This document shows positions 1,038 through 29,545 of a stretch of DNA of 32,000 bases, in pieces. Location: assembly GCF_000023965.1 (NCBI RefSeq), contig NC_013202.1:2460001-2492000 (forward strand), read 5' to 3'. Each line of letters opens with the position of its first letter. Position 1 is the stretch's first letter. The position numbers were made by a program, and so were the translations under genes. The notes under the pieces are model-generated. The model saw only the letters and a list, made by a program, of their open reading frames with translations, was not told where the DNA came from and made no database searches. This DNA is from Halomicrobium mukohataei DSM 12286. GTDB lineage: Archaea > Halobacteriota > Halobacteria > Halobacteriales > Haloarculaceae.

Positions 1038-1565
1038 TTACTTTCCCTTCGTCGTCGTGTGGTTATGAGTGGGTATAGTAGTCCTTAACCACCGGACACA
1101 CAGGGCAACTCGCTTCTGGTGAAATTGAGGTCCTGCTGCAGTCCTGCGATTCACCTCTTGGAAGTTGAAATGTGCGCCCGAAACACTAACGACCGGCATC
1201 ATCCGGGGCAGTGCGCCCTGTCGACCGGCAAACCCTCGTGTCGGGCGGGTTGCGCGTAGCGCAACCGAGTGGTGAAGTGGTGCGTACCACTGAACCGGAA
1301 GGCGTGCAATGCCTCCATGTAGTGAGACGGCGTCAGCCGTCGAGTCGACTGTCGCGTGCCCGGGTTCGCCGCGCTGTCATCGTCCCGAAAGACGGGCCTC
1401 GGGCGGGGACAAAAGGCACGCAGTCGGTGCTAGTCCGTCGGAGGGGTAAGGGATTGCGGTCCGGCCGCGACCACTGCGGGGGATTCGTCCGGTTCGCTGT
1501 CGGTGCTGACCGGCGACCGTCGCCACGGGATAGACGATCCCGGTACACTGCTACGCTAATCAGTA

Positions 1566-2924
1566 TCAGACGGTGTACTCCGACTCGGCGAGCTGGACGT
1601 AGCCGCCGTCGCGGTACTGGTACTTGCGCCACTTGTAGCCGGCGACGGTCTTGAGCCCCAGCGTGCCGGCAGCCAGGGCCTGTCGCCACAGAGACCCGTC
1701 GACGGTCTGCATCGCATTGACGGTGGCGAACACGCGGTCCCAGGTCGTCGGATCGTATCCCTCGACCAGGTCGGCGAAGGCGACGTTGCGGAGGATCTCG
1801 GATTCGAGTGCGTCCTTCCAGGCGTCGTTGTAGCGGTCGAGCGCGTCCGTCGCGGCCAACTCACCGGCGATAGAGCCCGTTCGGACGGCGACGTGGTCTC
1901 CGCCCTCGTGGAAGGCGGAGGTCGCGCCCATCGCACCGCCGACGACGGCGACGTTCGCGTCGGTCGGCGAGTCGATCGGCCGGGTCGAAGAGATCGGGTA
2001 CGTCTCCGTGCCGTCGGTCTTGCCCCGGTCCTCGACCAGGGGGAACTCGTCGAGGTCGTAGTCGGGAAACTCCCGTTCGAGCAGGCGCTCGACGTAGGTG
2101 CGACCCTGTGGGATCTTGTCGTCGTCCTCCCGGAGCAGGGCCCACTCGCTGGCGTCGTAGTCGTCGATGTCCAGCCCGATCGGCATCGTGAGGCCGATCC
2201 GAGCCACGTTGTCGTCGTTCGGGAAGATCCACGGGTAGGCGGTGTGGCCGGGCATCACGCCCCACCAGAACTGGATCCGGTCCTCGGGGAACAGTTCCTC
2301 GGGCATCCGGCGGTGCTCCTGGTAGGCGATGTGGTTGGCCTCCGTCGATGGGAGCCGCTCGGAGAGTGACTCGTTCGCCGGGAGGAACTGATCGAGGACG
2401 CGGCCGGTGACCGTCCGCTGGGGACCGTCCGCGAGGACGAGCGCGTCGGCGACGATCGACTCGCCGTCCGAGAGCTTCAGCGTGTGCTCGACGCCGCCCG
2501 AGAGGTCGGTCTCGACGGCGGTGACGCTCGTGCCGACGCGGTACCGAGCGCCCGCCGTTTCGGCGCGGTCGCGCAGCCAGTCGTCGAAGCGAGCCCGCTG
2601 GAAGGTGAAACCGAATCCGGGATACGCGGAGTCGATCCCCGTCTCTTCGATCAGGACCGACTCGGTGGGCCCGATGAACTCCGCGCCGTCCAGTTCCGCG
2701 AGCTTCACCGAGTCGGGGAACTCGTCGGGACCGAAGCCGGCGAGTTCGGTCCAGTAATCCAGAAAGCCGGCGGCGTCCGTCGAGTCGGGCCCCAGTCCGT
2801 CTCGGTCGGCTCTCGGGACCCCCTTCTCGACCACGACGGCCTCGGCACCCTGTTCGGCGGCTGCCCGACCGGCAGACGTACCGGCGGGCCCGCCGCCGAC
2901 GATCGCGACATCTACGCGCTCCAT
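1566..2924 (-). CDS. FAD-dependent oxidoreductase, geranylgeranyl reductase family
   Basis: N-terminal Rossmann motif VAIVGGGPAGTSAG...VVVEKG. The 452-aa acidic protein is clean over its full length. The family call is from overall resemblance only. Confidence 0.6.
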   Translation of the reverse strand: MERVDVAIVGGGPAGTSAGRAAAEQGAEAVVVEKGVPRADRDGLGPDSTDAAGFLDYWTELAGFGPDEFPDSVKLAELDGAEFIGPTESVLIEETGIDSAYPGFGFTFQRARFDDWLRDRAETAGARYRVGTSVTAVETDLSGGVEHTLKLSDGESIVADALVLADGPQRTVTGRVLDQFLPANESLSERLPSTEANHIAYQEHRRMPEELFPEDRIQFWWGVMPGHTAYPWIFPNDDNVARIGLTMPIGLDIDDYDASEWALLREDDDKIPQGRTYVERLLEREFPDYDLDEFPLVEDRGKTDGTETYPISSTRPIDSPTDANVAVVGGAMGATSAFHEGGDHVAVRTGSIAGELAATDALDRYNDAWKDALESEILRNVAFADLVEGYDPTTWDRVFATVNAMQTVDGSLWRQALAAGTLGLKTVAGYKWRKYQYRDGGYVQLAESEYTV

Positions 2925-6641: not shown

Positions 6642-7679
6642 CTACAGGTAGCCGTTGGCCGCCAGCAGTTCGCCGTTGAGGACGCTCGCGCCCGCAGCGC
6701 CCCGCATCGTGTTGTGAGCGAGACAGTTGAACTGAAGTCCGTCGGTCGTCTCCTGGACGCCGCCGACTGCGACGCCCATCCCGTCCTCGATGTTGCGGTC
6801 GAGGCGGGGCTGTGGCCGGTCAGGCTCGTCGAAGACCCGGATCAGCTGGTCGGGCGAGGACGGCAGGTCGATGCCCTCCGCCGACCGCAGCGCGTCCTCG
6901 GCGTCGGCGACAGTCACGTCGTCTTCGGTGTCGACCCAGACGTTCTCGAGGTGGCCGTCGAGCGTCGCGATGCGGTTACAGGAGGCCGCCACGTCCATCC
7001 CGTGGAGTTCGATCGCCGTGCCGTCGAAGCCGCCCAGCAGCTTCCGAGACTCGGTCTCCATCTTCTCCTCCTCGCCGCCGATGTGCGGGATCGCGTTGTC
7101 GATGATCTCCATCGACGTGACGCCGTCGTAGCCCGCCCCGGAGACGGCCTGTAGCGTCGAGACGCGCACGTCAGTCAGACCGAAGGCCTCGTCCAGTGCC
7201 GCCAGCGGCGGCACCATCGTGATCGTCGAGCAGTTCGGGTTCTTCAGGAGCGCACCGTCCCAGCCGCGTTCCTCGCGCTGGCGTTCGAGCACGTCGAGGT
7301 GATCGGCGTTGACCTCGGGGATCACGAGCGGCACGTCCTCGTCCATGCGGCCGTTCGAGGAGTTCGAGGAGACGACGTAGCCCGCCTCGCAGAACTCGGG
7401 TTCGACCTCGGCACCGACGCCGGAGGGGAGCGACGAGAAGATCAGGTCCACGTCGTCGGGCACGTCCTCGGGCGTGGTCGCGCCGACTTCGATCTCGGCC
7501 ACGTCCTCGGGAATCGGCGCGTCGATGCGCCACTTGGCCGCCTCTCGGTACGCCTTGCCGGCACTGGATTCGCTGGCAGTCAGTGCTGCGATCTCGAAAT
7601 CGGAGTGCGGTTCGAGCAACTGGATGAGTCGCTGACCGACCGCACCAGTGGCCCCCAGAACACCTACACGTACAGTCAT
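6642..7679 (-). CDS. asd: Aspartate-semialdehyde dehydrogenase
   Basis: MTVRVGVLGATGAVGQR N-terminus, an active-site-like NPNCSTI motif, and 345 aa, which fits archaeal Asd. Confidence 0.85.
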   Translation of the reverse strand: MTVRVGVLGATGAVGQRLIQLLEPHSDFEIAALTASESSAGKAYREAAKWRIDAPIPEDVAEIEVGATTPEDVPDDVDLIFSSLPSGVGAEVEPEFCEAGYVVSSNSSNGRMDEDVPLVIPEVNADHLDVLERQREERGWDGALLKNPNCSTITMVPPLAALDEAFGLTDVRVSTLQAVSGAGYDGVTSMEIIDNAIPHIGGEEEKMETESRKLLGGFDGTAIELHGMDVAASCNRIATLDGHLENVWVDTEDDVTVADAEDALRSAEGIDLPSSPDQLIRVFDEPDRPQPRLDRNIEDGMGVAVGGVQETTDGLQFNCLAHNTMRGAAGASVLNGELLAANGYL

Positions 7680-7752
7680 CGGTTCACACACTGCCGTGAC
7701 CGGTCAAAACAGTTTGGATAGCGAGCGACTCCCTGGGGTCGTACCGTCTCAT

Positions 7753-7829
7753 ACGGTTTCTTGTAGTTGCTTACCGATGATCGTCTACTCCGTGGCGACG
7801 ATCACCGGTAAATCGCTACAATAATCCGT
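7753..7829. repeat. Palindromic repeat element, copy 1 (33-nt arms, 11-nt loop)
   Basis: Left arm acggtttcttgtagttgcttaccgatgatcgtc, loop tactccgtggc, right arm gacgatcaccggtaaatcgctacaataatccgt. It ends 1 nt before the TGA (7831-7833) of the minus-strand gene. It matches 29036-29112. Confidence 0.85.
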
Positions 7830-7830
7830 A

Positions 7831-8280
7831 TCACTCGGTGGTCGCCCGTTCGCCGAGGTCTTCGAGCGCCCAAGTGACGATCCGTGCCTCGACCACGTCC
7901 CGTTCCTCGACGTGGTCGTCCTCGCCGTAGCGCTCGATCGTCTCTCGGGCGTCGGCGAGCATCTCGCGCTCGCGTGGCCGCTGGTCCGGTTCGTCGCGCA
8001 CGTCGTTGAGCAGCGCCTCGAAGTCCTCGCGCAGGTCGAACGAGGCGTGGGCGACGTTGCACCGCGAGAGGGGGCTCATTCCCGTTTCGAGGACGAGATC
8101 GCGAACCGTCTCCCAGTCGTCCGCACAGAAATACACCGTGACGGTGCTCTCGATGTCGCGCCAGGCGATGGGGTCGCCGTGTCGCATGAGCTGGACGGCC
8201 CGCGGGGGCAGGTCGATCCGAGTGGCCGTCTCCTCGGTCCCGCACAGACAGCACGGCTCCTCCGTGGTCCCGGTGTACAT
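7831..8280 (-). CDS. Acidic hypothetical protein with an N-terminal CCxCG motif
   Basis: Clean 149-aa acidic ORF with an ATG start and haloarchaeal composition. No recognisable domain. Confidence 0.55.
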   Translation of the reverse strand: MYTGTTEEPCCLCGTEETATRIDLPPRAVQLMRHGDPIAWRDIESTVTVYFCADDWETVRDLVLETGMSPLSRCNVAHASFDLREDFEALLNDVRDEPDQRPREREMLADARETIERYGEDDHVEERDVVEARIVTWALEDLGERATTE

Positions 8281-10284: not shown

Positions 10285-10355
10285 GCGGCGGTGGTCTAGT
10301 GGTAGGACCTGAGCCTTCCAAGCTCATGGCCCGGGTTCAAATCCCGGTCGCCGCA
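10285..10355 (+). tRNA. tRNA-Gly (anticodon UCC)
   Basis: Cloverleaf folded by hand: acceptor GCGGCGG/TCGCCGC, D stem GTCT/GGAC, anticodon stem TGAGC/GCTCA with loop CTTCCAA, T arm CCGGG-TTCAAAT-CCCGG, discriminator A. It is 71 nt with no encoded CCA. Confidence 0.9.
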
Positions 10356-10451
10356 TAGCGAGGTTCGAGCGACTGCGGGAACCTCGGAACAGTGAACGGC
10401 GAGCGACGCGAGCCGTGAACGCATTTCTGCGAGGAACAGACGTGACGAGCG
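10332..10451 (+). repeat. Direct repeat copy A (tRNA-Gly T arm and 3' acceptor plus about 95 bp of downstream flank)
   Basis: cgggttcaaatcccggtcgcc...tagcgaggttcgagcgactgcgggaacctc.gaacagtgaacggcgagc.acgcgagccgtga.cg.atttctgcga...tgacgagcg recurs 174 bp downstream. Confidence 0.85.
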
Positions 10452-10505: not shown

Positions 10506-10619
10506 CGGGTTCAAATCCCGGTCGCCCCGTAGCGAGGTTCGAGCGACTGCGGGAACCTCAGAACAGTGAACGGCGAGCCACGCGAGCCGTGACCGAATTT
10601 CTGCGATACATGACGAGCG
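10506..10619 (+). repeat. Direct repeat copy B (pseudo-tRNA-Gly 3' end plus flank)
   Basis: Nearly identical to 10332-10451, with a few substitutions over the first ~95 nt (acceptor mutated to tcgcccc-g) and a short indel near the end. It ends at the stop codon of the 10623 minus-strand gene. Confidence 0.85.
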
Positions 10620-28896: not shown

Positions 28897-28954
28897 CTCG
28901 GGTCTTCTCTCTTCGTTCTCACGACGACGAACAGTCGGTACTGGAGCCTCTCGT

Positions 28955-29030
28955 ACGGATTATTGTAGATCGTTACCGGAGCAACCGCGGGCTGTCGTGC
29001 GGTCGACTGGAAGCGGCGACGATAATCCGT
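28955..29030. repeat. Degenerate copy of the palindromic repeat element (copy 2a)
   Basis: acggattattgtagatcgttaccgg...gacgataatccgt shares the arm termini ACGGATTATTGTAG and ATAATCCGT. The interior has diverged. It is separated from copy 2b by the 5-nt gtcat. Confidence 0.55.
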
Positions 29031-29035
29031 GTCAT

Positions 29036-29112
29036 ACGGTTTATCGTAGTTGCTTACCGGTGATCGTCGCCATGGAGTAGACGATCACCGATAAATCGCT
29101 ACAATAATCCGT
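29036..29112. repeat. Palindromic repeat element, copy 2b
   Basis: Left arm acggtttatcgtagttgcttaccggtgatcgtc, loop gccatggagta, right arm gacgatcaccgataaatcgctacaataatccgt. It ends 1 nt before the TGA (29114-29116) of the minus-strand gene. Confidence 0.85.
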
Positions 29113-29113
29113 C

Positions 29114-29545
29114 TCACTCCGACTCGGAGCCCACGTCGTCGGTCGTCGCGACGACGTCGAGTTCGGAAACGTCGGCGGTACACCAGTGACAGAACTCGAT
29201 GTCGGGATCGAGTTCGCGACCGCAGTTCGGACAGTGCGTGAGCTGTCCGTCGTCGGTGACCGAGAGCTGAGCGACCGCGTTGTGGACGTGTGCGAGAGCG
29301 TACGCGTCGAGGACGCTCAGCGTGGCGACCAGCACGAGCGGCGCGAGTGCCAGCGGGTCGACGCTCCCCTGGCCCGCCGCTTCGAAGGCCGCGGGGTCGA
29401 CGAACACGACCGACACGGCGAACAGCGCTACGAGCCACCCGAGGGCCCGTCGCCACCGCCGGAGGTAGAGGTGACCGAGTCCCGTCGCGAGCGCGCCCAG
29501 CAACGCGGCGAGCAATGGCCGTTTGCGGGATTGCGATCCTTCCAT
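29114..29545 (-). CDS. Membrane protein with a C-terminal zinc-ribbon (CPxCG...CxxC)
   Basis: Two or three hydrophobic helices are followed by HCPNCGRELDPDIEFCHWC and an acidic tail. Confidence 0.55.
   Translation of the reverse strand: MEGSQSRKRPLLAALLGALATGLGHLYLRRWRRALGWLVALFAVSVVFVDPAAFEAAGQGSVDPLALAPLVLVATLSVLDAYALAHVHNAVAQLSVTDDGQLTHCPNCGRELDPDIEFCHWCTADVSELDVVATTDDVGSESE

Follow-up and report, generated by a model that had tools for sequence, protein, structure and literature searches.

The repeated hairpin found behind minus-strand genes in the window, i.e., the whole 32,000-nt stretch of the Halomicrobium mukohataei DSM 12286 chromosome analyzed here, is almost certainly a foldback, non-coding MITE that generates a 3-bp T-S-A target-site duplication, as shown by comparison of a filled site in this genome with the empty site of a relative. 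From sequence comparisons, its movement is likely to depend on a transposase from a haloarchaeal clade of the IS630/Tc1-mariner family.

Copies in the window and their boundaries

The original prediction, which was made from the sequence of the window, placed one type of element at two loci, near positions 7753-7829 and 29036-29112, and this was borne out by sequence comparison. Both copies consist of 33-nt arms around an 11-nt loop, with the left arms differing at 3 of 33 positions and the right arms at 1 of 33, just as described. The extent given, 77 nt, fell one base short at each end; the inverted termini are TACGG...CCGTA and the element measures 79 bp. It had also been read correctly that the TCA one base past ...CCGT is, at both loci, the TGA stop of a minus-strand open reading frame (ORF; 7831..8280 and 29114..29545). 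The lack of a terminal target duplication claimed at the same time was an error, as direct TCA repeats bound both copies, and the window holds four copies rather than two, all of them behind the stop codons of three minus-strand genes (Table 1). The product of ORF 7831..8280 had no Pfam match, while that of ORF 29114..29545 is a 143 aa membrane protein with a zinc ribbon (DUF7575). The loops of copies 1 and 2 are mutual reverse complements, that of copy 2 being inverted.

Table 1. Positions of MITE copies and their flanking triplets in the window.
Feature	Position	Strand	Basis
Left target-site duplication of copy 1, TCA, 3 bp	7749..7751	.	Read directly from sequence
MITE copy 1, subfamily A, 79 bp, TACGG...CCGTA, 33-nt arms, loop TACTCCGTGGC	7752..7830	.	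Sequence
Right duplication of copy 1, TCA; TGA stop of ORF 7831..8280 (149 aa)	7831..7833	-	
Left TCA of copy 2, doubling as right TCA of the older adjoining copy	29032..29034	.	Sequence
MITE copy 2, subfamily A, 79 bp, right tip mutated to CCGTC, loop GCCATGGAGTA	29035..29113	.	
Right TCA of copy 2; TGA stop of ORF 29114..29545	29114..29116	-	
Degenerate member with subfamily-B-like core, tips TACGG...CCGTG, adjoining copy 2	28954..29031	.	nhmmer match 28952-29034, 23.4 bits
Degenerate subfamily-A copy, tips decayed to TCCGG...CAGTA	1488..1565	.	nhmmer match, 45.6 bits, and direct repeat
TCA adjoining the old copy; TGA stop of ORF 1566..2924 (FAD-dependent oxidoreductase)	1566..1568	-	

The two additional copies are degenerate. 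In the one adjoining copy 2, the left flank has decayed to TCG (28951-28953) and the sequence folds no better than its shuffles (z = -0.9); the relative G003 retains a shortened remnant of this copy, and G002, a genome of the same genus, has none. The left flank of the copy at 1488-1565 likewise reads TCG (1485-1487). Copy 2 went into a TCA that was already in use by its older neighbor. Copy 1 is identical in G002, the stop codon at 7831 carries a different, degenerate member of the family in G003, and the site is empty in G006 and G016. Single stop codons have thus been hit repeatedly, as seen both from the TCA shared by copy 2 and its neighbor and from the different members at the 7831 stop in this genome and G002 versus G003.

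Two further features of the window were recorded. G003, G006, and G016 have conserved the sequence GTCAAAACAGTTTGGAT (7700-7720), unlike the rest of the spacer in which it lies, between MITE copy 1 and the aspartate-semialdehyde dehydrogenase gene start (6642..7691); it is probably the asd promoter or operator, with MITE copy 1 just upstream. Separately, a 101-nt direct repeat (10332-10432 and 10506-10606; 94% identical, 174 nt apart) starts within the tRNA gene at 10285-10355, in the 3' part, and resembles a duplication of the tRNA 3' end, possibly left as the scar of an old integration.

Family census, target sites, and RNA folding

The original prediction would have been refuted by the presence of only two copies in the genome and none in relatives, but the family is confined neither to two copies nor to this genome. 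Iterated nhmmer searches of the genome (a 3.11-Mb chromosome and a 222-kb replicon, 65.6% G+C) identified 115 family loci, and relatives carry from 0 to approximately 180 family ends per strand, i.e., 180 in G002, 22 in G003, 1 in G001, and 0 in G008, with 91 in this genome. The family divides into two subfamilies that differ in their cores; the tips, TACGGnnnnTTGTAG...CTACAAnnnnCCGTA, are common to both and constitute the terminal inverted repeats. Genome-wide, 82 copies matched the strict pattern T[CG]A-TACGG...CCGTA-T[CG]A, of which 77 are 79-80 bp in length, and groups of 11 and 9 identical copies were present. In subfamily A, the 11-nt loop occurs in both orientations among otherwise identical copies (28 of the GCCACGGAGTA type and 10 of the TACTCCGTGGC type; compare window positions 7786-7796 with 29069-29079). 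This flip is a minute inversion between perfect inner arms, such as strand switching at hairpins produces. One G002 copy (C1:25895-25980) has inserted into a DDE_Tnp_1 transposase gene (C1:25695-26488), the Pfam match of which it splits. No description of this MITE family, or of an IS630 element that duplicates T-S-A, was found in the literature searched. An "NmIRS" repeat of Natronomonas moolapensis was not confirmed in the genome paper of that species.

Direct T-S-A triplets lie on both sides of all 82 strict copies, with 43 flanked by TCA/TCA, 39 by TGA/TGA, and none by a mixed pair; formally, the length of the duplication is ambiguous between 1 and 3 bp, since the T and A extend the inverted tips, and the empty site is the same either way. 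Arm and loop orientations occur in all combinations with TCA or TGA, so the central base of the triplet is derived from the target and not encoded by the element. At the copy-2 locus, G003, in which the flanks are approximately 96% identical, has the empty sequence GTG-TCA-CTCCGAC, whereas this genome has GTG-TCA[79 bp]TCA-CTCCGAC. The empty site, GTGTCACTCC, contains no TA, and the duplicated unit is TCA. In G002, the flanks of this locus are 99% identical and both copy 2 and its older neighbor are absent. Among the three options put forward in the original prediction (a REP- or MITE-like element, a 3'-end stabilizer or terminator, or a protein-binding palindrome), the MITE was therefore the right one, on the evidence of the 82 of 82 T-S-A repeats and the empty site in a relative. 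We also observed that the empty site in G002 (the orthologue of window positions 28940-29130, approximately) reads GG-TCA-GTCTGACTCGG, compared with TCA-CTCCGACTCGG in this genome and G003. The DNA, which is otherwise 99% identical, thus differs by two substitutions within 5 nt beside the stop, and the last codon is Asp, not Glu.

The same observations bear on whether the repeat might be REP/REPIN-like, with a Y1 (HUH) transposase of the IS200/RAYT type moving it in single-stranded form. The whole element is indeed a hairpin containing GTAG/CTAC, and this genome has three Y1_Tnp genes, two of them near apparent MITE ends. However, one of these ends (C1:2536204) lies inside a TnpB coding sequence and the other (C1:540729) belongs to a truncated MITE behind an unrelated stop; the Y1_Tnp genes themselves are ordinary IS200/IS605 units that are not flanked by the repeat. 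Furthermore, HUH transposition makes no target duplication and would tie orientation to the flanking triplet, whereas the family has a duplication and shows all combinations. The distribution is also discordant, as G003 has MITEs without Y1_Tnp and G008 has four Y1_Tnp matches and no MITEs. We regard such an origin as scarcely credible.

At the RNA level, the expectation that each mRNA would carry a hairpin of about 33 bp right after its stop codon was upheld by predicted folding, with a stability far beyond chance. The minimum free energy of the mRNA strand was -40.5 kcal/mol for copy 1 (z = -6.0) and -43.2 kcal/mol for copy 2 (z = -6.8), and none of 200 shuffles folded as well as either hairpin. 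The suggestion that a terminator or stabilizer function is the reason for the element, by contrast, went unsupported. On the mRNA strand, the hairpin is not followed by a U-run, the tails being ...CCGUAUGAGACGGUACG in copy 1 and ...CCGUAUGACACGGAU in copy 2; a terminator-site scan of the minus strand found none; and Rfam gave no match at the element, with only two tRNAs reaching the gathering score in the window. Among the 43 stop-associated copies, the mRNA strand folded more strongly than its complement in 27 and less strongly in 15, a trend that was not significant (p = 0.09), and copy 2 is absent from the orthologous locus of close relatives. That the repeat is a selected RNA element (a terminator, an mRNA 3'-end stabilizer or a small-RNA gene) which spreads for its usefulness behind genes would be in keeping with the very stable hairpin immediately after the stop (-40 to -43 kcal/mol), with the weak strand trend and with the enrichment of copies between convergent genes reported below. 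It is nevertheless highly improbable. In addition to the missing U-run and Rfam match and the non-significant strand trend, orthologous loci of close relatives and entire congeneric genomes lack the element, 36 of the 82 strict copies are located in spacers off any predicted stop and 3 more in predicted genes, and the T-S-A duplication and empty site show transposition to be the mode of spread. We found no evidence of an RNA function as the reason for the existence of the element; an incidental effect on host mRNA 3' ends is plausible.

A candidate partner of the IS630 family

The candidate partner for the MITE is an insertion sequence (IS) of 1,142 bp in G002. It has a Pfam DDE_3 match of 116.9 bits, and its two overlapping ORFs match the NCBIfam profile "IS630 family transposase" at profile positions 4-105 and 138-295. 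Its ends read TACGGTCGTGC... and ...GCACGACTGTA (TACGGTCGTGCATTAG... / ...CGCACGACTGTA). Four of the five G002 copies with both ends (one internally deleted) have TGA...TGA flanks; the fifth has TGA/TCA flanks that map far apart in this genome, which suggests an exchange of flanks between IS copies. A 91%-identical transposase occurs in G068, a genome of a different genus, within an element of the form TCA-TACGG...CCGTA-TCA. More distant ISs, in G043 and on a Natrarchaeobaculum plasmid, possess TAGTG tips and direct TCA or TGA flanks, and an IS copy in Natronococcus has mixed flanks. Mixed TGA/TCA flanks, which speak against the partnership, were found in two of nine IS copies overall. A still more distant IS630-family element was noted at L087 (G096), positions 696-1815. 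It is 1,114 bp in length and has a TCA...TCA duplication as well as inverted ends (TACTATCGGCTGAAAG...) that are perfect over 20 nt; the T-S-A duplication may thus be wider within haloarchaeal IS630 elements.

The IS and the MITE share TACGG tips, T-S-A flanks, and a TTTACC block at nt 19-24. When 10 IS ends from five genomes were aligned without gaps to four MITE arms, T1, A2, G5, T20, T21, and C23 were invariant and C24 was present in at least 90%. In this genome, YTTRCC is located exactly at nt 19-24 in 118 of 164 MITE arms and occurs at no other offset. Similarity between IS ends and MITE arms is weak elsewhere, with only 13-16 of 26 positions matching outside the tip and this block. In ISY100, the transposase binds the inverted repeat via an N-terminal double-HTH domain (PMC2170065), and a cleavage tip combined with a subterminal block is the pattern expected of such binding. 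TACGG-type MITE ends were most numerous in G002 and G068 (180 and 178 per strand), the two of the 81 family genomes that carry TACGG-ended ISs, in what is a post-hoc comparison involving related genomes. Across the family as a whole, the presence of DDE_3 showed no clear relation to MITE count, as most DDE_3 matches come from other subgroups of IS630, in which T-S-A/TAC ends are lacking; a fit was seen only for the specific clade.

Searches by tblastn and blastn found no homolog of the IS630-clade transposase in this genome, which nevertheless has groups of identical copies and at least one insertion that is missing in G002/G003. Other MITE-rich genomes (G003, G015, G042, G051, G054, G076, and G091), several of which are incomplete MAGs, likewise showed no close homolog. 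The PLSDB matches to the IS are all on haloarchaeal plasmids, and some G002 copies are on the second replicon; a plasmid-borne IS copy may therefore have been lost from this genome. An empty site for the IS itself was not obtained, the flanks of the second-replicon G002 copy having no counterpart in this genome.

A search for an autonomous copy in this genome, using pairs of family ends that share the same T-S-A at a separation of 100-6000 bp, gave one candidate (C1:2289084-2290211, 1,128 bp), which proved to be a native wHTH and DUF7509 gene pair between two truncated MITE halves; in G005, the orthologous genes are present and the ends are not. At this locus, which is outside the window, a truncated MITE arm (C1:2289084-2289107) is fused to the last sense codon of the wHTH gene and supplies a TAA stop, while the orthologous gene in G005 has a TGA stop of its own. 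Also set aside was an 894-bp repeat (C1:366116 and C1:2360300) with TGATACGG at its end, as it is a duplicated membrane-protein gene with a MITE after each copy. By genome self-BLAST, none of the resident ISs has TACGG tips or a 3-bp duplication. These comprise an IS1595/ISH4-like element with 8-bp duplications, DDE_Tnp_1 elements of approximately 935 bp (with a 9-bp repeat at the one IS_C copy examined), a 1.4-kb IS4-like element and an IS1341 TnpB element.

The classic makers of 3-bp TNA/TWA duplications are the IS1031/IS427 group of the IS5 family and PIF/Harbinger elements. A MITE derived from either would account for the 3-bp T-N-A duplication and palindromic target, both of which are typical of these groups in the ISfinder classification. 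Nonetheless, PF13586 (DDE_Tnp_1_2), the catalytic domain of IS1031/IS427, which accompanies DUF4096 in these transposases, was found in 0 of the 81 family genomes, with control genomes positive, and PF13359 (DDE_Tnp_4, the Harbinger type) in 0 of the 5 genus genomes. In addition, the resident DDE_Tnp_1 elements make 8-9-bp duplications and have unrelated ends, and no long element with the terminal inverted repeats of the family exists in this genome. A derivation of this kind is accordingly very unlikely. The rve domain (PF00665; IS3/IS30/IS481 types) was also found in 0 of the 5 genus genomes.

The absence of an IS630-clade transposase here, despite signs of recent activity, raises the alternative of an orphan "small mobile repeat" whose movement depends on an enzyme other than a recognizable transposase, or on one that the searches missed, its likeness to IS630 ends being coincidental or convergent. 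There is a precedent in Haloquadratum walsbyi, in which mobile repeats of 80-110 bp have inverted termini unrelated to any transposon and their mobilization was described as "enigmatic" (PMC3119063). However, coincidence would have to extend to the T-S-A flanks, the TA..G tip and the TTTACC block in the same register in 10 IS ends from five genomes and in both MITE subfamilies, and the two IS-bearing genomes top the MITE count. We therefore consider the orphan alternative unlikely and prefer an IS630-clade transposase as the mover.

The IS630/Tc1-mariner family is defined by TA targets and a 2-bp duplication (PMC2170065), whereas the IS copies described here are themselves flanked by T-S-A and not by TA alone. 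The repeat, a non-autonomous cut-and-paste DNA transposon of 79-80 bp, inserts at TCA or TGA and duplicates three bases. Under the preferred mechanism, its transposase would come from the haloarchaeal IS630/Tc1-mariner clade and recognize each arm by the TTTACC block (nt 19-24), to which the N-terminal HTH domain would bind; it would cut at the TA..G tip, with a 3-nt target stagger instead of the canonical 2-nt one. This genome would have lost, or never fixed, the autonomous element, leaving its copies as orphans at present. Any effect of the hairpin on mRNA 3' ends would be a by-product.

Stop-codon siting and comparison with known systems

The duplication falls exactly on a predicted TGA stop in 43 of the 79 non-genic copies (approximately 54%). 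If all non-coding T-S-A sites and TGA stops were equally likely targets, 9.6% would be expected, a figure that is approximate, as are those that follow, since our own gene model (2,879 genes, 81% coverage) misses some genes and so inflates non-coding space. Reconstructed targets revealed a palindromic preference, GWC-TSA-GWC. Genes for this acidic proteome commonly end in GAC-TGA, an Asp codon and a stop, and such ends match the target preference, which raises the expectation on stops. When sites were weighted by a target PWM learned from non-stop copies only, the expectation rose to 21%, leaving a residual excess on stops of approximately 2.5-fold. Convergent spacers contained 29 copies (14.8 expected) and divergent spacers 9 (21.2 expected; p = 3e-5). 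From the latter, we infer selection against promoter-side insertions, and depletion from promoter-side spacers may account for part of the residual stop excess.

With a TGA stop as target triplet, a gene would keep an intact stop codon and acquire a hairpin of about 33 bp directly behind it. Insertions of this kind would be harmless and hence survive, and the affinity for GAC-TGA may help to explain the local success of the family. Taken together, we lean towards the view that a haloarchaeal IS630/Tc1-mariner clade makes a 3-nt stagger, at T-S-A rather than TA, and has spawned foldback MITEs with a preference for GAC-TGA ("Asp codon + stop"); stop codons would then be a favored safe landing site, through which the mRNAs of 43 genes in this genome would have gained a 33-bp hairpin.

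Many of the "structured" intergenic signals in genomes of Halomicrobium and its relatives are accounted for by the 79-bp hairpins, which should be masked as mobile DNA and not interpreted as RNA genes or terminators. The T-S-A clade, if real, would show that strand-transfer spacing can shift by one base despite the TA hallmark of the IS630/Tc1-mariner superfamily, and it comes with natural MITE substrates. A duplication that regenerates the stop codon lets a transposon insert at zero distance from a gene without damage. The element itself is of an ordinary kind; what is new here is the probable IS630-clade partner with its non-canonical T-S-A duplication, along with the quantitative account of stop-codon siting.

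Several known repeat families resemble this one in part. ERIC/IRU, RUP, and Correia elements are also dispersed imperfect palindromes that lie by gene ends and are co-transcribed into mRNA hairpins, but their sequences and hosts are unrelated to this family. Those of this sort with known targets duplicate TA, and no such bacterial repeat is known to use the stop codon itself as the duplicated target. A parallel in a haloarchaeal setting is provided by the small mobile repeats (SMRs) HqIRS40-43/55 of H. walsbyi (PMC3119063), which share the size of 80-110 bp, prominent inverted termini, a strong target preference, and the lack of an identified resident transposase. SMRs were, however, reported to have no target duplication and to aim at IS605-type palindromes, whereas the present family duplicates T-S-A and targets gene ends.

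Among transposon groups, the IS1031 group and PIF/Harbinger elements, with their Tourist MITEs (mPing), are alike in the 3-bp T-N-A-type duplication, the palindromic target and the foldback form. Their transposase domains were not found in the genomes searched, however, and the terminal and subterminal motifs match IS630-clade ends instead. There is also a likeness to Stowaway-type and bacterial IS630-derived MITEs, which have the same short, non-coding foldback shape and many near-identical copies, share only the terminal bases and a subterminal binding block with their autonomous element, and duplicate a T...A target; the candidate partner carries DDE_3. They differ in their hallmark TA duplication (PMC2170065), as opposed to the 3-bp T-S-A seen here, and in that the partner of the present family is missing from this genome. 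Given that the empty site contains no TA and that the duplicated unit is T-S-A, we class the element as a variant with an IS630-MITE-like mode of action and not as a canonical member of that group.
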